Positions 28,123 to 62,311 of a stretch of 64,000 nt of DNA are shown here, one piece after another. Every line of letters begins with the position of its first letter. Positions within the stretch are counted from its first letter, which is position 1. Location of the stretch: assembly GCA_951406725.2 (NCBI GenBank), contig OX597815.1, forward strand, positions 41,230,001 through 41,294,000, given 5' to 3'. The position numbers and the translations under genes were made by a program. Source of the stretch: Octopus vulgaris (Eukaryota). The notes under the pieces are model-generated. The model did not search any database. It worked only from the letters and a program-made list of their open reading frames with translations, and was not told the origin of the DNA.

Positions 28123-29399
28123 CGAGGGGCGTTCAATAAGTAATGCCTCTGACCCACTTGCCGTTGTTTGATCTAGCTGCAATTATTCATATCTCTATAG
28201 ATTAAGTGGCAAATTACAGCTCCGAACTAATTGTGGTTTCTGATTTACATGTGTTTGAAATGAGTCAAGTGGGAAATGGAGCCTGTTGAGTGTCGAGCAG
28301 TGATCCGGTTTTTGTATTTGAAATGACGCACACCACAGGAGACTTTTGATGAAATGAAAGTAACTTATGGTGATGATGCCCCATCATATGACCTTGTAAA
28401 ATGCTGGCATCGTGAATTCAAACATGGTCGGAACTCTGTGGAAACAGCTCCCAGATCTGGTCACACCCCTTCTGCCATTGATGAGGCATCTGTCCGTCAA
28501 GTTGAAGCTGCCATTTTGGAAGATCGACGCATAACTATTCGCCAAATAGCCCATGAGGTCAAGATTCGTACCGGGTCTGTGGAAACTATCATTCATGACC
28601 ATTTGCATATGCAAAAGGTGTCTGCCAGATGGATTCCCAAGTTGCTCACACTTTTCCAGAAGCAAGAACGCGTCGAGTGCTTGAGGATGAATTTAGGGAT
28701 GTGCCAAGAAGATGAGTCAAAATTTTTCAAAAGTCTGATTACACAGGATGAGACCTGGGTCCATCACTATGATCCAGAGACCAAAGCCCAGTCAATGCAG
28801 TGGAAGCACCATGACTCACCTCCTCCAAAGAAGGCAAGGGTGCAGCCCTCTGCTGGCAAGGTCATGCTCACAGTCTTCTGGGACCAGGACGGAGTAGTGA
28901 TGACAGATTTCCTGGCAAAGGGTACCACAATTACAGGAGCCTATCATGCTTCACTTTTGAGGAAATTAAGAGAAGCTATCAAAACCAAGAGGCGGGGCAA
29001 GATCAGCAAAGGCATCCTCCTCCTGCAGGACAACGCTCCGGTCCACAACTCGCGTGTCGCCAGATCAGAAGCACAGGCGTGCGGCTATGAACTATGCCCC
29101 CATCCCCCTACTCTCCTGACCTTGCACCCTCTGATTTTCACCTCTTCCCAGCCATGAAGTTGTTTTTGAAAGGAAAGCATTTCCCAGATGATGCAGCCTT
29201 GATTTCTGAAGTCACGTCGTGGTTGGAGGACCAAGCTGGGGTCTTCTACGAAAACGGTCTCCAGAGCTGCATCAAACGATGGGAGAAATGCGTAACTCTG
29301 GGTTGTTTCTATGCTGAAAAAGACTAATACCTGTGCCAAGTTTCGTTGCTCTACTGCTATGGGAAGTGGGTCAGGGGCATTACTTATTGAACGCCCCTC

Positions 29400-39900: not shown

Positions 39901-40756
39901 ATTCTCTCTCTCTTGACTGTGAGCTTATGTTAAACAATTACTGCAACGTATAGAGCAGATTATGTTTTCTGTCAAGTCTATCATAAAGATGCATCTTCAC
40001 TTTTCTTTTTAACGAAAGAAATTAGGTAACATTTTTTTTGTGTCTGGAGGCCACAAACTGAGAGGTTTGAGCCAGATATTGTCCTTTCTGGTGAAACATT
40101 CACTGATTTTGTTGTTTTAAATAGAGTGCTTAACTAAATACTTCTACATTGCATTAATATTGCCTTATCAAAAGATCAAACCTCACAAGTTATTCATTAT
40201 CAATGGTAATAGAAAGGCATATCCTGTTCTTTGTTAACTTTTAAAAGTGCACTGTACAGTTAAGTTTTCTGTCAGACAATTTCAGTGCAGTATACACTGA
40301 TAGGTCTCTCTCTTGACATATAGTCTATCTACTAAGAGTACTCCACAGTTTGGTTATGCTTCCCATTGTACATTAATGATCTACTTGCTGATACTTATAA
40401 ATACATACCCTTCTATGTAGATGATACCACTCTCCACATTTAAAACCTTTTGCAGCACACAAATATCATTCACCTCCAACCTAACCAGTTTATGTCAGAC
40501 TTACAATGCTGACATGAATAGAAACCTTGAAAACAATTTCAATGGGGACTGGAAACCTAACGAATACTAGACATATTAGATTCACAACACATTCTTCCTA
40601 TGCTTGAACACACAAGCAATGCCCTCAAAATTCATAATCTCTGATGATCTCTCAGAGGCCATGCATTTTAAAGACTAGGCTTCCACTGCAGAAGCCAGAA
40701 CATATTTTAATCTTGCACCTTTGGAAAAGTGCTCTCACACTTAGGATGCTGCTGCT

Positions 40757-41048
<292 letters not shown>

Positions 41049-44000
41049 GTTTAGCTAATTGGCAAAAATCCACTAGAATGTTACAATTACTATCTCACAA
41101 GTCTGACTATTTCTTCTCTCAGCTAGTTTTACTGCAACTACAATGACTTCCACACTTCTGAACTTAAGCTGCTTATCATCACCTCTTTGGCACACCTGCT
41201 GCCCAAACTCATTGCCTTTACCTTTCAGACCACACAACAGACACTTTTCCCAATCATTCCTTTCTAAGGTGCAACCCTTAGAATTCCTCTCTTGTCTACC
41301 AATGTCCTCCCACCAGGCATCAGTTTACAGGAAGCTCAAACTGAACATCAATTCCACTACTCTGAGAGGACCTACAAAGATTACGAATGCTCCTTTCTGA
41401 CTTGCATACATATAAATTATTATCATTAGTTATTGGAAAGTGACAATCCATCAATGATTACAGTTAGCATGTGTGCAGTATAGGTTGAGAAACTACAATA
41501 AAAACACCAACATTACATACACATATAAATGTTCATGTGCACACTCACACTCAAATGCAAAGGCTAGTATCGGGTAGAACAAACTTGCTCGTAAGAGCCA
41601 CATGTGATAAACTACAGATGTTTGAGTTACAAGATATGAACAATATTTACATACAAGTTTATATTCTTCATCATCATCATTTAATGTCCGTTGTCCATGC
41701 TGGCATAGGTTGGATGGTTTGATCAAGGCTGGGAAGCTGCACCAGACTCCAGTCTGATTTGGCATGGTTTCTACAACTGGATGTCCTTCCTAATGCTAAC
41801 CACCCCAAGAGAGTAATGGGTGCTTTTATGTGCCACCAGTACAGGTGCCATTAGCATGACACCAGTATCTGCCATGACTGCAATTTTATTTGGCTTGATG
41901 GGTCTTCTTCTCAAGTACAACATAATGCCAAAAGTCTCAGTCATTGCCTCCATGAAGCCCAACACTCGAAAGGAGCTTTCTACCTGCCACCAGAAACAAC
42001 TACTTTGTGTCCGTGAGGCCCAACACTCAAAAGGTGCTTTTTACATGCCACCGGCATGGGTACCAGTTATGTGACACCAGTGCCAGCCACGACCCTGATT
42101 TCACTTGGTTTCAGATATACATGTACACAATAATAATATTCACTCGTAAATGTAATTGATAATGTGATTTAGTTTCAGTCATTACCAAGTATACATATAT
42201 ACCAAATGCTTTAAAAATTTTGACTGGTGATTGTTTTAACTTAATTGAGTGGCTTTAATACGATAATAAACTATGAGAACATCTTAGAAAAATAGTAATT
42301 TGCATTTCAGTAAATAAACTAAAACAAAAAATTAATTTCTTATTGATATTTGTCTTTAAATATCTGAAAACATGAGGGAAATGTATTTAAAAAAAACAAA
42401 AAAAACTAATAAACTTAGAGATATTTCAATCAGATACCACTAATTACAGTCTTGTAAAATTTTTATGACAAACAGACAATGCTACAATTATCAGATTATT
42501 TACTGCAAGTAAGAGCTCTTATGGGTCTCTATCTTGGCTGTAAATCATTGAAAATCCAGGTGATATGCTGTCATGGTTGAACAAATTAGTTCTGCCAAGT
42601 GGTTATTAAGGATTTGCATGATACTTCAACTTCACAAACTTAATTACAGATAGTGATTCAAAGTAGCATGTTGCGCTGACAACTGAGATGGATTTCGCAC
42701 TAGTTTTCTGTAGTTTAGAATATATTATTTCTGGAATTTGTTTCCAGAACTTGATTACAAACTGGGATTTCCATTTCTACAGTAGTTGATTATGAAACCA
42801 GATGCTAAAGAATCAGACATCTTGCACTGACACATCATTTAAGAATGGATTTACTAGACAGGTGAAGCAGTATCTTACAATTTATAGTCTTATATTTCAA
42901 TACCACAGAATGAATTTACTCTCTTACTGAGTAAGATCAGAAACAATTATGTTCTTCCCCAGCAATGCCAAGTCAAATTTTGCAGAAGATTCTTTACTTC
43001 AGTAAGAAACGTCAGAACTTGCATCCATTCATCCTTTTCCAGTTGAGAATAAAGACTTTTCTTTGAGAAAAAAATAATAAAAACATGGCTGTGTGGTTAA
43101 GAAGTCTGCTCCCCAGTCACATGGTTTTGAATTTGATCTCAGTGTGACATCCTGGCCAAGTGTCTTCTACTATAATCCTAGGCCAACCGAAGATCTGGTA
43201 AGCCACACAGCTGTGCCAAGCTCTTGTGTCTGCTTTGGTAGGTTTTCTATGGTTTGATGCCCTATTTAACACCAACCACCTTAGAGTGTGTATTGGGTGC
43301 TAGTGAGATTGCCAGCTAAGTTGTAAGACAGAAAAGAATAGGAAAGACAAAAGCTGCCCCCCCCCCCCGCCACGATGAGTCGTGGTGGTGGAGTATTAGG
43401 AAGGAGGAGGTGGTTTTATATTAGGTGTTGAAAGCTTAAAGTATGACAGAGGGACAAGCATAGGTGTCTTGCTATAGATAAGATACACTGCTACCCCACA
43501 TTATAAAGGGGGAGAGATACATACATAGTAGCAATTGGGAAGATGAAGACAAGAAATATCATAGTGGTGGAATGCCAGAGCAAACTCTCAGTAAAGCAGA
43601 GCACTCCCATATTTCACTACTCTGTAGCTTTCTAACTTCCTTAAGTTTTAATGTTATTTTGAGTTTATAAATGCCTAAGAAAAGGAAAGTGGGAGGAATA
43701 GTTAAGTAAACTGATCCAAGTTATGTTTAATGAAGTAAACAGTTAGGTGAGTAAATGACTATGTGTATGCCATTTGCTGAGTGAACCTTGGCTGCTATGA
43801 GCAACCACATGCAGGCTGTTGTTGAATTCCAGTTAGCCCTGACCAAACAGACCTCTTATGATCAAAGGATTCCAGCCATGACCATCCATCTTTTTCTTAT
43901 GTGAAAGACACCCGTGACCACATTATCTAACACCATTCTCTAAGACAGAAAGATGCGATTTGAAAGGGATTCGATTGTTATTTCTAGTAAGTAGAGTGTG

Positions 44001-50284: not shown

Positions 50285-51447
50285 TATATCATCGTTTAAA
50301 TGTCCATTTTCCATGCTTGCATGGACCAGATTTGTTGTGACAGATTTTCTATGGCCACATGCCCTTCCTACCACCAGCACTCACTTGTTTTGAAGGTAAT
50401 ATTTCCTCATGTTTTCATGGACATTTCACCATCCAGCTACATCTATGTACATGTGTACACACACATACATACATACAGATGTTATATCAATAGCATTTAG
50501 ACAGATTTAAATATAAAACGCAACTTCTCTAATCCCCGCCACCGAAATTAATCCTAGTAGAAGACATGAAAGGATCTCAGGAAGAACATAATGTAATCCA
50601 GAAAAATCCAACTCAAAGATATATGTTCTAAAATCTCAGCCTACAAGATGTTAGTTAATCCATCACTTGCATACCAGCATATAGAGCATATGCTCTAGAG
50701 CCTCCATTGCTTCTGTTGTCTTGATTGTTTTCCCAGTGCCTGTTAAGAGACCTCAGTTTTTTTGTTGTTTTTTTTTATCTTCTCTTTCATCTTACTTGAG
50801 TCCATCTTAATTTTGTTTCTGCATACTCATTATCTGGTTGTTGCAGAACATGACAAGCCAAATGCATTCTATGTACATTTACCAGGTCTTGAAATCTTCA
50901 TGATAATAGTCTTCTTAAAACTTCATTTCTATGGATTTTCCTCCAAGACTTTTATTTAAAGACAGTCAACTCTTTGACGATTTTCTTTTCTTCCTTCTTT
51001 CACTTGCATATAGCATTGTCGATAGTTTGATGGAACAGTGATCCCTTGTTTATCGCAGTAGATTTGTTCCGAGACCGGCTGCGATAACTGAATTTCCGCA
51101 AAGTAGGGACACCATATTTACAGTATTTATTTAACGTGTATTTGGACTTTTAAAACTCTCCCTGTACTGTTAACAACTCACCCATTACAGTAGTCTATAA
51201 ATAACAAACACAACTGTTAAGCAATAACACTTTAGATTTAAAAAAATATTGTTACTGTTACACAGGCCAGATTACAAAATAGAAAGCTGTGATTCGTCGT
51301 CTCTCTCCATTGCACAAATCCCAGCCCATCTTAAGTTCAAATACCCCTGTATATGCTTTTTTGCTATTTTGCTCTTGTTTTGTTGTTCATAGACTAGGAA
51401 ATAATATTTATTATTAATATTTTAATGGATTTAATGAAAAATTTTAG

Positions 51448-51728
51448 GTGTTCATATAGCTGATTAAGTTGTTGAACAATGAGGACCAAGTGGTCGTTGC
51501 TCGCGCCGCTGTCATTGTACACCACTTAACCAGAAATGATGCTAGCCGGCATGTTATCCTTAATTCTCCACAAATGGTTGCGGCTCTTGTACGAGCCATG
51601 AATAATACAAATGATTTTGAAACCACTCGTTATGGAGCTGCAGTTCTCCATAGCCTCTCACAACATAGACAGGGACTTCTGGCTATATTTAAATCTGGAG
51701 GTATTCCAGCTCTTGTAAAATTACTCAG
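51448..51728 (+). pseudogene. CTNNB1: Isolated beta-catenin (armadillo) exon fragment covering the first ARM repeats
   Basis: Encodes [89 protein letters not shown], unmistakably beta-catenin (ELTKLLNDEDQVVV...[15 protein letters not shown]). AG at 51446-51447, donor GTAAGC at 51729, and in-frame TAG at 51457 where Glu is expected. No other beta-catenin exon was seen in the window. Confidence 0.85.
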
Positions 51729-51824
51729 GTAAGCTTTTCAATCTTCGATACTCTGTTACTCGTTTCACTCCCAGTCATTGGACTGTAGCCATGCTGGAGC
51801 ACCACCTTTAAGGGTTTTATTTAA

Positions 51825-52045
51825 CCCTTTAGCATTTAAACCGGCCATATCCGATCAAAAGTATTCTGCCTGTTTTATGTTCAAAATGGCCAGATCTGGT
51901 CTCTCACACCAACCCTACAATATCGTTTTAAAAATTAATAGCTACCTCATCAAAATCTCAAAACTACAAGATAATTCCTGATTAGTTCAAGGCAATGTAG
52001 ATGAAAAAGCATTAATTTTGGCAGAATAATGTGAACACTAAAGGG
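51825..52045 (+). mobile_element. piggyBac-like MITE, family B
   Basis: TTAA|CCCTTTAG...CTAAAGGG|TTAA. Related copies at about 9790-10210, 30108-30323 (inverted) and 33570-33740. Confidence 0.75.
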
Positions 52046-52189
52046 TTAAACAAATCAACCCCTAGTACTTATTCTGTCAGTCTCTTGCTGAACTAAGTTA
52101 TGGGGGCATAAACACACCAACATCAGTTGTTAAGCGATGGTGGGCAAACACATACACATAGATACACACGCACACACATATATACACCA

Positions 52190-52422
52190 AGGCGGCAAGC
52201 TGGCAGAAACGTTAGCACGCCGGGCGAAATGCACAGCCGTATTTCGTCTGCCGTTACGTTCCGAGTTCAAATCCCACCGGAGTCGACATTGCCTTTCATC
52301 CTTTCGGGGTCGATTAAATAAGTACCAGTTACGCACTGGGGTCGATGTAATCGACTTAATCCGTTTCTCTGTCCTTCTTTGTCCCCTCTGTGTGATAGCC
52401 CCTTGTGGGTAATAAAGAAATA
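52190..52422 (+). mobile_element. tRNA-derived SINE, same family as 53820-54052
   Basis: Near-identical CpG-rich copy with A and B boxes. Older copies occur at about 800-990, 1045-1300, 3953-4150, 5685-5896, 8010-8200 and 15483-15678. Confidence 0.88.
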
Positions 52423-52574
52423 TATATATATACACATGCGCACGCACACACACATATAATGGTATTTTTTCGGTTTCCGTCTACCAAATTCACTCACAAG
52501 GCTTTGGTGATCTCAAAGCTATAGTAGAAGAGACTTGCCTAAGGTGCCACACAGTCATGTCTGCAAATTATATA

Positions 52575-53145
52575 TCTATGTATATAAATTTGACATGGGC
52601 AATTCTTTCTTGTCTTGGGATTCACGATCAAACGGCTGGGTGGAATTGCGCGAAAAATTACACAGATGTATAGAATGATCTGGGGGTGATGCTGGGCTTT
52701 GTATTTTTTTCATAGTTCCCCTGGTTACCAAGATAATCTACTATAATAATACTCTTGTGTTTATGAATGAGAAAGGAAGGCATGATAGATGAATAAGGAA
52801 GGAAGTGGTGATGTCATACTTGGTGGTGGGATGAGGAAAATTGTACGCTGAAAAATAAATCAAACAGCATTTCAACTCTGTGTGTATGTAAAGGAGGGGG
52901 TATGTGTGCGCGTGCAATGGAAGTGGGATGGTTCATCGTTGTTCACTTAGTATTTGGATTTATTTTTTGATTTGGTTGAATCTTGGTTGTTGTTTTTTGT
53001 AGTTATTTTTAGCATTTTGACAAAAAAGTCATTCTAAAATTGTTTTTTTATGTAAGCATGCCCAAACAAGTCAAATGCTTTCACAGAGCAGGTTTTACAG
53101 CCACATCATCCAAACCGACCAGGTGAAACCAGGCTTAGCTGCTAG
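52575..53145 (+). mobile_element. Non-autonomous Helitron-like element
   Basis: Starts A|TCTATGTATATAAA and ends with a degenerate hairpin CCAGGTGAAACCAGG about 8 bp before CTAG|T. No target duplication. Confidence 0.55.
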
Positions 53146-53174
53146 TATATATATATATATATATATATTTGGAT

Positions 53175-53211
<37 letters not shown>

Positions 53212-53819
53212 ACATAAATAGGACCTACTCAGCTTATGCAAGGAAAAGATAATGTAGGTGATGTATATCTATATATACATCAGTTTTGAAATACTTGGAC
53301 AGATTTTCAATTCAAGGTAGAAAGCTGACAAAATCATCATTTAATGTCCCTCTTTCCATGTTGGCTTGGGTTGGACAGTTTGATAGGAACTGACAAGCCA
53401 GAGGGCTACCCCAGGCTCCAGTGTTGACTTTGACATGGTTTCTATGGCTGGAGGGAGACATTTCTTAGCACCAGCCATTTTACAGGAGATATTAGGTGGG
53501 TTTTTTTTTTTGCTTTGTTTTGAGTTTTTTTTTTCGGCATAGCACTACACCAGTGAGGTCACCAAATGCTTGCAAGACAAGACATCCCTCAACTGAGTGG
53601 GATATAATCTTGCTTTCCAATTTTGGCACAAGGCCAGCAAATTCAAGGAAGGAAGAAAGTCAATTACATCAACCTCAGTTCTCAACTCGTGCTTATTTAT
53701 CGGCCCCGGGAGGATGAAGGGCAGGGTCAGCTTTTGCAGAGTTTGAACTCTCAATGATTCTGCCAGTTTGCTGCTTTGAGTGGAATATAATATTGAAGGA
53801 TATGAAAGTATGGTAGAGG

Positions 53820-54052
53820 AAGGCGGCGAGCTGGCAGAATCATTAGCACGCCGGGCGAAATGCTTAGCGGTATTTCGTCTGCCGCTACGTTCTGGGTTCA
53901 AATCCTGCCGAGGTCAACTTTGCCTTTCATCCTTTCGGGGTCGATTAAATAAGTACCAGTTACGCTCTGGTGTCAATATAATCGACTTAATCCGTGTGTC
54001 TGTCCTTGTTTGTCCCTTCTGTGTTTAGCCCCTTGTGGGTAGTAAAGAAATA
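53820..54052 (+). mobile_element. Young tRNA-derived SINE with 21-bp target duplication
   Basis: Head GGCGGCGAGCTGGCAGAATC (A box) and GGTTCAAATCC (B box), core GCCTTTCATCCTTTCGGGGTCGA. Flanked by GATATGAAAGTATGGTAGAGG at 53799-53819 and 54053-54073. Confidence 0.88.
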
Positions 54053-54189
54053 GATATGAAAGTATGGTAGAGGGACAGAAAGTTGATGGAAAAAACAAGG
54101 GTTGTTCATAGGAAAGGCATCTGGCAATTAAAAAAATGAATCTCCCAAAATATCTTGTCTAACTCATGCTGGTATGGAAATAAATTATG

Positions 54190-54582
54190 TTGAGGCAAGT
54201 GAGGATCAGAATTGAAATCGATCAATGGAAATTGCAGATGTGTTACCAGTGCCGGTGGCATGTAAGAGAACCTTCCGTTTCGCGACCGTTGCCAGCACCG
54301 CCCCGTTTCGTGTCCGTTGCCAGCCTCGCCTGGCACATAAAAAGCACCATCCGTTTGTGGCCGTTTGCCAGCTCTGTCTGGCACCTGTGCGGGTGGCACG
54401 TAAAAAGCACCCACTACACTCTCGGAGTGGTTGGCGTTAGGAAGGGCATCCAGCCGTAGAAACACTGCCAGATTTGACTGGGCCTGATGAAGCCTTCTGG
54501 CTTCACAGACCCCAGTAGAACCGTCCAACCCATGCTAGCATGGAAAACGGACGCTAAACGATGATGATGATGATGATGATGA
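54190..54582 (+). mobile_element. Abundant retroposon with (ATG)n tail (SINE or LINE 3' end)
   Basis: Ends GGCGTTAGGAAGGGCATCCAGC...CCAACCCATGCTAGCATGGAAAACGGACGCTAAACG(ATG)n. Other copies at about 1430-1683, 3270-3366, 7795-7958, 27610-27800, 34192-34530 (-), 41668-42110 (-) and 47215-47560. Confidence 0.8.
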
Positions 54583-55242
54583 TTTTAAAAATCCGCGAAA
54601 TTATGAATCCGCAAAGTAGTGAGGGATCACTGTATTGTATATGTAGATTTTGAATGTTAGTGTCCAGTGTATTCATGGACCATATTTTGTACATTTGCAG
54701 AAATGTTGTTGTCACTTATTTACATTCTGAATTTGACAGTGAGTATCTCTGTCATTAAACAAAACACTACCAAGTATGTGAATTAACTCATATGAGAAGT
54801 GAATAAGCACCGACAGAAAACCACATTAATTCATGAAAAATTTAACATGAAAATTCATCAAAACTCTAAAGGAAATCACACAAATTATTTTTAAATGTGC
54901 AGAGTTATTACCAATCAAGACAAGAGAATTTAGTGTTAGAGTCTAGCAAAAAACAACATGAAGCATTTTAATTGGTAATATAATACTTCAGGAATTGGTA
55001 CAATCCAAAAATCTTTCAAGACAACTCACTATTTGTTTTCTTTTGTAGTTTTGAAATAATATCCAGAAATAATTTACTGGTGTTACTATTTCTGTGTCTA
55101 TCAAAAGAAACAATTTTTCTGGTATTTAATCAATTGGGATCATATCGTGGTTTTAGCACAGCTATGTTTTTTTGGGAACAGATATTTGTGAAGACCAAAC
55201 TGAAGTTTACTATTACAATTATCATCACTTGCATTTATTTGC

Positions 55243-61693: not shown

Positions 61694-62079
61694 CTAAAAA
61701 TGAAACAAAAATTTAAATCATTATCTATACCAAACAAGGATATTTTTTTTTTTTATTATAGAGTATTTTTGTTATTTTTCAAAGTACTAATTATATTTAT
61801 GAACTGAATATTAAATGAAACTTATTTATATCAGATATATCATGGGATTTCAGTTAGACAAGGAATATGATTCAAAAATAAACCTTTAGAATGTTAAAAT
61901 AAGTTGCTATTACCAAAAGAAGTCAAGTAGTTATGTGTTAATTTTCTACTTAATTATACAACAAATTTAATAGAAATTACTTATGAGTTTTAGAATAACT
62001 TGTTGGCTACAAATGTTATAAAACAGGAAAGGGACATTACCAAAAGTATTGAAAGGTAAAAGCTTTGAAGCTAAGTTAC

Positions 62080-62311
62080 CTAATATATTTCGAGTTGCAT
62101 CACTTTCATCATTGTCAGAATCAGAAAGTTCCATATCAATTGCTTCTGTGTTATCTTGTTGTGTATCTACGTCTGCTGGTGGAGTACTACTAGGTGATGG
62201 AGCATCAGGTGTAGGTGAAGGCAGAGGACTAGCTGGATCTGGTAATGACAACTTCAGTTCATCGAGTTTCTTTTTCACAATTGCAACTCTAGAACCAAAG
62301 TTTTTATATGC
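62080..62311 (-). CDS. RPRD2: RPRD2-like protein, internal exon
   Basis: Acceptor ttttacttAG and donor GTaact. Encodes AYKNFGSRVAIVKKKLDELKLSLPDPASPLPSPTPDAPSPSS...IDMELSDSDNDESDATRNIL, matching RPRD2 AYKTFANRV..KKKLDQLK..LPDP..SP.PSPS.DAPSP and DMELSD motifs. 232 nt, phase 0 to 1. Confidence 0.9.

Follow-up and report, generated by a model that had tools for sequence, protein, structure and literature searches.

A retained intron is usually taken as proof that a duplicate was copied from DNA. LINE chimeric retrocopies carry a copy of a cellular RNA 5' of a truncated LINE 3' end, both in the same orientation and at one target. Host DNA held within terminal-inverted-repeat (TIR) elements of animals, as Pack-TIRs, is a larger class than the preliminary description of the present locus assumed in calling it rare: Tan et al. 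(2021, PMC8277862) report 370 in 100 genomes. Their rules ask that the copy have 80-120% of the parent's length and that TEs be absent from the 100 bp next to either parent end. As the main text words it, their retrocopy filter drops only intronless copies, so that a copy of a pre-mRNA would pass as DNA capture; the discussion mentions LINE template switching and 5' transduction, and the words octopus, mollusc and editing are absent from the main text. Templated sequence insertions (TSIPs), in the account of Onozawa and Aplan (2016, PMC5110952), bring distant transcribed sequence, also intronic, into a break or LINE target, with evidence of reverse transcription, and those of class 2 show microhomology with neither target duplication nor poly(A). 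The Tigger family of pogo is described as having TA targets, short TIRs, a full element of ~2.6 kb and a DDE_1 transposase (PMC9219625, PMC7386202). Among open-licence PMC and bioRxiv texts we found no cephalopod Pack-TIR and no edited pre-mRNA copy fixed in a genome, a result that is weak as evidence of novelty.

A split Tigger MITE in an RPRD2 intron

The window analysed is a 64,000-nucleotide stretch of Octopus vulgaris (GCA_951406725.2, contig OX597815.1, positions 41,230,001 to 41,294,000). At 51036-54632 it holds a composite, one ~490-bp Tigger (pogo) MITE split by a 3.1-kb insert, within a 39-kb intron of RPRD2. The host gene, in which CID and CREPT domains were found, lies on the minus strand, and no exon of the annotated protein maps inside the intron (23243-62080); the beta-catenin copy in the insert is antisense to it, as had been proposed. 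The inverted termini reported around 3.6 kb are likewise present: CAGTGATCCCT at 51036-51046 has its reverse complement ending at 54632, an 11-bp perfect match with each copy occurring once in the window. The long arm (51036-51457, minus strand) corresponds to the element's 3' end, as oriented by the transposase in full-length copies, measures ~422 bp where ~300 bp had been given, and ends in ATATA, the remnant of a (TA)n tract. After 3126 bp of insert, the short arm with its terminal inverted repeat follows at 54584-54632 (minus strand). The TCCGCAAAGTAG motifs do lie on both sides (51095-51106 and 54608-54619), but they are direct, internal repeats of the element. Of the TA flanks, the right one exists (54633-54634) but the left flank reads AA; in full-length family copies TA stands on the left in 24 of 27 and on both sides in 21.

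Placed end to end, the arms rebuild a MITE family (400 first-look candidates, 40 scored, most of them full-length at 90-95% identity), and their terminal match is not due to chance. Within a single family member the two arms follow directly on each other, which upholds the attribution of both ends to a single Tigger/pogo element and rejects a reading as two separate ones. From its family majority the long arm differs at 19 of 417 column sites (12/391 outside CpG). Comparison within the octopus genome indicates that the MITE is a non-autonomous internal deletion derivative of a 2.56-kb element: locus L166 has both arms (88-95%) around a transposase remnant in 2557 bp, flanked by TA, and a frame in L154 matches DDE_1 (E 5e-30), its best named matches being Tigger-derived protein 1-like (77%). 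The MITE ends had no counterpart at the 30 best DDE_1 loci, and the link was found through a longer deletion derivative, L075; transposase frames are broken in all three long family members examined. Foreign DNA occupies the same tract as the cargo in 5 of 30 other MITE copies, picked by the left arm alone, and one insert, that of L087, was traced to a young mobile element with near-identical copies, so that L087 was rejected as a candidate for a second gene capture; L073, L077, L078 and L093 were also viewed.

We compared contigs from DNA-type sequencing runs (X1, X2, X5 and X8) with the window. The flank-to-MITE junctions are bridged, the left one in X1, X5 and X8 and the right arm-to-flank one in X1, X2 and X5, but the MITE/exon and LINE/MITE junctions are bridged by no contig among those listed. 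X1, X2 and X5 all contain the cargo version of the intron letters, at roughly the depth of a single copy, alongside full-depth donor-type contigs. No empty-site joint was seen among the 15 listed, and, because the four runs differ from the window by only 0-2 letters in ~500 at the listed flanks, none is useful as an outgroup. Such contigs merge isolated differences; they can neither confirm the exon base by base in other animals nor show that an empty allele is absent. The structure of the split element is real, and both its termini and its cargo are confirmed.

The beta-catenin cargo and its LINE tail

The cargo, 2.7 kb long, reproduces a truncated beta-catenin exon together with most of the intron that follows, and it matches a single parent, on another chromosome, at 91% over 2.6 kb. 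The exon copy (51458-51728, plus strand; donor G000:C1:194979929-194980199, minus strand) has Catenin beta-1 as its best PDB match (E 5.8e-42) and keeps its GTAAGC donor site at 51729. The ARM-repeat exon that had been recognised thus stands, but of its 305 nt the first 34 are missing, as is the acceptor; a 1-nt microhomology (A) marks its joint with the MITE. The sole exon change relative to the donor is a CpG transition at 51478, from Asp to Asn (1 of ~270), and 268 identical bases run over the exon, the next longest identical run being 104. Contig depth over the exon is ~1.5-2x single copy in X1, X5 and X8.

Alignment to the donor locus likewise bears out the intron-like DNA as beta-catenin intron (51729-54052, plus strand), composed mostly of nested repeats, SINEs included, common to the donor; 126 of 2247 aligned sites differ, with 15 gaps. 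An inverted SINE-like copy (53610-53778, minus strand) corresponds to the first arm of a hairpin predicted in the donor pre-mRNA and a second SINE-like copy (53820-54052, plus strand) to the other. The latter has a 21-bp target duplication (53799-53819 and 54053-54073), whose right-hand copy is lost from the donor and intact in the cargo. Intron DNA at 54053-54187 (plus strand) is kept in the cargo and missing from the present-day donor; within it is a degraded 3' end of LINE type (score 56.5, where 300 shuffles gave at most 47.5), and the segment has one weak match elsewhere. A template switch at the second SINE as its source was rejected, since the cargo still has the whole target duplication. 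The parent match ends at a SINE end, and the length ratio of cargo to parent is 107% (2731/2553) without the LINE and 122% with it.

The exon and intron of the cargo were correctly identified at the outset, but its last 396 bp (54188-54583, plus strand, same orientation as the beta-catenin copy) are the 5'-truncated 3' UTR of a young LINE with a (GAT)8 tail, which we take to be of the RTE clade. This tail differs from the majority of 16 copies at 3 of 391 sites; a full-length relative has a 1059-aa frame with endonuclease and reverse transcriptase, and of 150 LINE matches scored, 13 fall inside an open frame of 1059 aa. The layout of a retro-insertion is present, with a sense copy, 5' truncation and a LINE 3' end with a (GAT)n tail at the target. 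Neither a target duplication of the insert or LINE tail, beyond a possible AT, nor poly(A) was found; an AT run follows 5 of the 16 copies. Other copies of the LINE, judged by eye and not counted, also lack a clear target duplication.

Genome-wide the exon has two matches, itself and its donor; there is one cargo-bearing MITE, and no sign of past transposition of the composite. Multicopy, transposing Pack elements (Pack-MULE-like, FoSTeST) would instead show the composite repeatedly, at differing target sites. Both neighbouring beta-catenin exons match once, on contig C1, which rules out a nested gene, in agreement with the initial view. Structurally, the composite is a single-copy Pack-TIR and belongs to an already-described class. 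The identity of the cargo is eye-catching, but the copy is most likely neutral.

An A-to-G cluster in a predicted pre-mRNA hairpin

One hairpin arm contains a cargo-specific cluster (53708-53741, plus strand; donor positions about G000:C1:194977960-194977993, minus strand) that the preliminary description had overlooked: over 34 nt of the beta-catenin sense strand, six to seven A have become G, none of them after a G. The sites are 53709, 53710, 53724, 53725, 53730 and 53741, with 53708 unpolarised. The donor pre-mRNA hairpin (about G000:C1:194977650-194978100, minus strand) has a predicted MFE of -195.6, against -123 +/- 6 in 25 dinucleotide shuffles, and all six polarised sites pair with U in the predicted helix. 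Changed in the cargo are 6 of 9 A after A, 0/5 after G and 0/2 after U. In this arm the cargo has G at 7 of the donor's 21 A, versus 24 of 625 elsewhere (P 2e-5), and the partner arm has one polarised A>G only (53895). Six cargo-derived A>G in 40 nt were reached in 0 of 20000 randomisations for A>G and in 1 of 20000 for any change type. All these cluster tests were picked once the cluster had been noticed. On the sense strand, cargo-derived A>G outnumber T>C by 12 to 3 (P 0.017), compared with 8 and 5 among donor-derived changes; cargo-derived G>A and C>T (12 vs 5) were too weak and set aside.

The cluster is not a subfamily variant, and conversion from a SINE subfamily as its source is not supported: 62 of 67 family copies lack all six G, no copy has more than 2 of them, and a 20-mer that spans two of the sites is found a single time in the genome. 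Among ordinary family copies, 2 of 78 show five A>G in 40 nt relative to the family majority, over about 11% divergence. Assembly error is ruled out by X1 and X2 contigs that carry 53657-53784 with 0 differences, X1 also having a donor-type contig at similar depth, and an edited RPRD2 transcript would have given T>C on this strand, not A>G. Coleoid editing is reported to affect adjacent adenines, the downstream A first, in clusters of 32-45 nt (PMC8891338). We thus consider it likely that the cluster reflects A-to-I editing of this kind and points to an RNA template; if so, the cargo was likely copied from unspliced, edited RNA.

Origin of the insert

At the 1802 polarised intron sites there are 47 cargo-derived and 51 donor-derived changes, and divergence is 4.6% for the MITE arm versus 1.9-2.8% per branch for the cargo split. 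Under a published rate in which 0.09 equals 25 My (PMC13282606), rough ages would be 8.5-12.7 My for the MITE, 5.4-7.9 My for the cargo/donor split and 1.7 My for exon and LINE; the split from O. sinensis is put at about 2.5 My (PMC10700109). These clocks conflict: exon (1 of ~270) and LINE tail (3/391), together 4 of 661, agree as young, whereas the intron (126/2247) appears old. A single young event therefore needs a donor haplotype ~5% divergent from today's, and none was seen in the three runs with a listed exon contig (6-7 other letters each).

The reading we favour, with a probability of roughly 0.7, is that a MITE in the RPRD2 intron was split at (TA)n by an insert likely reverse-transcribed from a likely ADAR-edited, unspliced beta-catenin pre-mRNA, probably by a LINE enzyme, the DNA transposon likely being the landing site only. 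The MITE would have inserted first and then stayed put, until a nick or break opened its (TA)n tract. Reverse transcription would have started on the 3' side and crossed the intron, reading the inosines of the inverted-SINE hairpin as G, before it stopped in the exon, where the end would have been joined at the 1-nt microhomology. The LINE tail may have arrived in the same event, either because the enzyme switched templates, leaving LINE RNA for the pre-mRNA, or because a LINE tail then stood in the intron; alternatively, it could have inserted later at the right junction. Although the preliminary description had a DNA transposon acquire the exon and place it in RPRD2, there is one cargo copy, its tract takes foreign DNA in other MITE copies, and the insert ends in a LINE tail and shows signs of having been copied from RNA. 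The MITE was thus likely passive, and the product is most likely a non-coding, neutral fossil.

The standard route to a single-copy Pack-TIR offers an alternative at the DNA level: a break in the (TA)n tract would have been filled from beta-catenin DNA on the other chromosome, the A>G changes arising by error-prone hairpin synthesis or chance and the LINE being added later. The AA context of the changes also fits error-prone polymerase eta. This explanation accommodates the retained intron, agreement with the structural criteria of PMC8277862 for internal length and a unique parent, a breakpoint inside the element with few bases lost, the microhomology, and the symmetric 47 and 51 changes, which suggest an old split with a younger LINE (P 0.009-0.06). 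It does not, however, lead one to expect A>G changes on the sense strand that cluster in a pre-mRNA hairpin and nowhere else, at 6 of 9 AA sites; it leaves the 268-bp identical exon tract unexplained (P 0.007-0.03, cargo branch alone), and 59.8% of single-copy Pack-TIRs copy the same chromosome (PMC8277862), which the octopus cargo does not. We therefore regard it as rather unlikely. Capture of the fragment by the MITE at another locus, followed by a jump of the whole composite into RPRD2, would suit its intact termini and a 3.6-kb length near that of the 2.56-kb full element, but is highly improbable given the single copy, a MITE arm at least as old as the cargo split, the broken transposase frames and a cargo site that is an insertion hot spot in resident copies.

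Pairing between RNAs would tolerate mismatches, which counts against a further proposal, that selection keeps the exon identical because the antisense copy in RPRD2 pre-mRNA might pair with beta-catenin RNA, as a small-RNA source or as an editing guide in trans. The long identical tract would fit it, as would the raised exon depth, which is expected if the copies are alike; the only exon change is non-synonymous, however, and the tract can be accounted for without any function, by recent capture, by gene conversion or by chance. We consider such selection very unlikely; it concerns retention and is compatible with an RNA origin. Misassembly or a misplaced beta-catenin allele would explain why none of the listed contigs spans the inner junctions, but with the outer ones bridged and cargo-type letters at single-copy depth beside full-depth donor-type contigs, it is scarcely credible.

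A bolder version of the favoured RNA origin is tentative: the locus may be a germ-line fossil of one edited, unspliced transcript, in which a LINE enzyme switched to beta-catenin RNA as it was being made and fixed both ADAR edits and an intron haplotype since lost from the donor in DNA, all in one event. Intron-bearing RNA copies of this sort would get through every DNA-capture filter, and some animal Pack-TIRs and short interchromosomal duplications may be hidden pre-mRNA retrocopies. As a Pack-TIR alone, the locus would be a routine new member of its class. The octopus case suggests that the retained-intron proof of DNA copying can fail and offers a cheap test, namely strand-specific A-to-G clusters in pre-mRNA hairpins. 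If the interpretation is true, hidden pre-mRNA retrocopies would be countable by their editing scars, above all in cephalopods. The scar should be easiest to find in coleoids, which edit heavily and have many intact LINEs; it would also directly attest intronic RNA editing in germ-line cells and a route for edits to become heritable DNA.

Among known systems, the family of the octopus element resembles published Tigger/pogo elements in its TA targets, short TIRs, ~2.6-kb full element and DDE_1 transposase, and the MITE differs from a full Tigger in being ~490 bp, non-autonomous and internally deleted. As in LINE chimeric retrocopies, what is probably the copy of a cellular RNA lies 5' of the truncated 3' end of a LINE in the same orientation, but here the RNA would be the unspliced pre-mRNA of a protein gene, and tail and cargo may have arrived jointly or in turn. 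With class 2 TSIPs, as published, it shares microhomology without target duplication or poly(A); TSIPs, however, were described in humans, whereas here an editing-like scar is what points to RNA, the insert closes with a LINE 3' end bearing (GAT)n, and it landed in a microsatellite of a DNA transposon. Like the Pack-TIRs described by Tan et al., it holds host DNA (100-5000 bp there, 3126 bp here) between the halves of one TIR element of the TcMariner group, in a single copy, with a unique parent at >=90% identity, an internal breakpoint and short microhomology; it departs from them in a cargo ten times their median (224 bp), taken from another chromosome, with a LINE tail and an editing-like A>G cluster.

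A split Tigger/pogo element in the RPRD2 gene

Within the 2.8-Gb genome, the window lies at G000:C2:41230001-41294000, and an exon at 62021-62311 is a 100% match to an Octopus vulgaris-labelled protein that has a CID and a CREPT domain and relatives named RPRD2. When this protein is mapped to the window, the RPRD2 exons fall on the minus strand with a single intron, 23243-62080, inside which the split MITE and its cargo are located. Also in this intron are a mariner-type transposase frame (28327-29157, plus strand; 276 aa; Transposase_1, E 1.6e-24) and an uninterrupted (GA)n stretch about 300 bp long (40740-41050).

The composite begins with CAGTGATCCCT at 51036, and the complement of this sequence ends at 54632. 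The first 423 bases have 93% matches at many places in the genome, and an empty copy used as query retrieved a family of ~490-bp elements (at least 400 candidates at first look, of which the best 40 were scored). TA is present on both flanks in 21 of 27 full-length copies; the window copy has AA on its left flank, and 19 of its 417 compared sites depart from the family majority. In the family alignment, the left arm reaches an internal (TA)n tract, directly beyond which the right arm continues; we thus conclude that the two termini belong to one element split at a microsatellite, rather than to separate elements. The Tigger/pogo identity proposed in the preliminary description was confirmed by L166, a TA-flanked locus of 2557 bp found via longer deletion derivatives, which has both MITE arms around a transposase remnant; a sister frame matches DDE_1 and Tigger-derived protein 1-like sequences.

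Other relatives (L075, L078, L084-L086, and L097) derive from the same Tigger by a nested series of internal deletions; they are about 0.5, 0.6, 0.8, and 1.15 kb long and have one breakpoint in common, near short-form position 228. One MITE copy (L059, G000:C27:6457446-6458819) has its first ~180 bp in five or six tandem repeats of 96-99% identity. The MITE (TA)n tract is a hot spot of insertion and expansion (L073, L077, L078, L087, L093, L100, and L105), with inserts comprising SINE-like, LINE-tail, and unidentified pieces. A decayed octopus Tigger transposase (L154:1680-2870; G000:C10:21112110-21113300) shares 74-77% identity along its entire length with reedfish and softshell turtle proteins, which suggests horizontal transfer; Tigger transfers are reported to be common, in passages that do not name octopus (PMC9219625).

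Contigs of four sequencing runs (4 of 24 listed), all too close to the window to serve as outgroup, were compared with window 50560-55100. The joint between left flank and MITE was spanned in X1, X5, and X8, and that between short arm and right flank in X1, X2, and X5. The latter three runs also had intron letters of the cargo type, at approximately single-copy depth, alongside donor-type contigs. No contig among those listed spanned the inner MITE/cargo junctions, and repeat noise masked most matches over the compared stretch.

The beta-catenin copy and its age

The cargo (51458-54052) is 91% identical to G000:C1:194977653-194980205, inside an intact beta-catenin gene whose remaining exons are visible across 27 kb. 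The exon has two genome copies, cargo and donor, and the exons on either side have one each. Of the exon's 305 nt, the copy omits the initial 34, along with the acceptor; it has 1-nt microhomology at the joint and continues through the intron, so that intron sequence and nested repeats are common to both loci; the structure as first described, matched ends around a beta-catenin exon and intron in an RPRD2 intron, was upheld. Retained in the cargo are a SINE's right-hand target duplication and 135 bp that are gone from the donor; in the cargo, GAAATA marks each end of the missing segment, which would fit a microhomology-mediated deletion in the donor intron (G000:C1:~194977650). A (TA)n run in the cargo (53146-53209) contains an additional 11 nt that the donor lacks and that are similar to the L093 insert at its 3' end.

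The intron copy is followed by a 396-bp LINE 3' end that carries (GAT)8, is oriented like the beta-catenin copy, and is joined to the short arm. Some members of the LINE family are full-length: of the best 150 matches, which were scored, 13 lie in a frame of 1059 aa that encodes endonuclease and reverse transcriptase and has a weak PHD-finger match as well. At least 32645 first-look candidates exist genome-wide, and nearly all of those 150 share 97-99% identity with the query in the reverse transcriptase.

Because ~80% of the copied intron is repeat DNA, other copies of the repeats could be used to polarise the cargo-donor differences: of 1802 sites, 47 had changed in the cargo and 51 in the donor, the other differences being ambiguous (48, 50, and 12 ambiguous in 1795 sites with a smaller repeat library). 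Cargo and donor are distinct at one of ~270 exon sites and at 126 of 2247 intron sites. The exon's 268-bp identical run, by far the longest in the comparison, would be improbable if the cargo branch is taken by itself (P 0.007-0.03), a case weakened by the intron sites outside polarised repeats, of which fewer differ than in the rest (16 of 452). Against the majority of its family, the LINE tail has 3 differences in 391 sites, two of them at CpG. One young event may have copied a beta-catenin haplotype ~5% divergent from today's; such a haplotype was not seen in the run contigs compared with 50560-55100, and one source gives heterozygosity as 1.22% (PMC10700109). About equal weight goes to an older RNA capture, after which the LINE inserted and the exon stayed close to the donor through conversion, selection, or luck. 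Because the acceptor is lost and the sole exon change is non-synonymous, the exon copy is most likely a neutral fossil.

A probable edited RNA template

Taken together, the A>G cluster, 5' truncation, sense orientation, and LINE tail lead us to prefer, with a probability of about 0.7, reverse transcription of the insert from edited, unspliced beta-catenin pre-mRNA. On the beta-catenin sense strand, 12 cargo-derived changes are A>G as compared to 3 T>C, and six of the former lie inside 33 nt, which was equalled in 0 of 20000 randomisations (tests of the cluster being post hoc). The cluster sits in an inverted SINE predicted to pair, in the donor pre-mRNA, with a SINE 40 nt downstream (-195.6 kcal/mol, versus -123 ± 6 for shuffled controls). 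Donor A reads G in the cargo at 7 of 21 positions in the hairpin arm, as compared to 24 of 625 elsewhere, and within the arm the change affected 6 of 9 adenines after A, 1 of 5 after C, 0 of 5 after G, and 0 of 2 after U. Both the tight clustering and the preference for A preceded by A resemble coleoid editing, in which clusters span 32-45 nt and adjacent adenines are favoured, beginning with the downstream one (PMC8891338).

These G letters, found in DNA contigs from two studies, are not a SINE subfamily trait: 62 of 67 family copies have none, no copy has more than 2, and a 20-mer across two of the cluster sites is unique in the genome. However, the hairpin partner arm holds one polarised A>G, five A>G in 40 nt relative to the majority are also seen in 2 of 78 old family copies, and the AA context of the changes also suits polymerase eta.

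The transposon and known systems

The preliminary description was correct as to one Tigger/pogo element with beta-catenin cargo, but the transposon was probably not the agent that captured or moved it. The composite is single-copy in the genome, unlike a multicopy, transposing Pack element, and foreign DNA has entered the same (TA)n tract in 5 of 30 family members chosen by the left arm alone, one of these five inserts being a young mobile element. LINE copies followed by AT runs number 5 of 16.

Our literature search, limited in coverage, found no matching report. The composite has the main structural features of a Pack-TIR; the Pack-TIR screen excluded only intronless retrocopies, and its main text mentions neither editing nor octopus (PMC8277862). 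In human cells, RNA-derived intronic insertions without target duplications have been described (PMC5110952). As one copy with foreign DNA inside a resident element, the composite resembles the single-copy Pack-TIRs that Tan et al. attributed to repair within such an element (PMC8277862), and its proposed mechanism is closer to that of a templated insertion of the LINE type.
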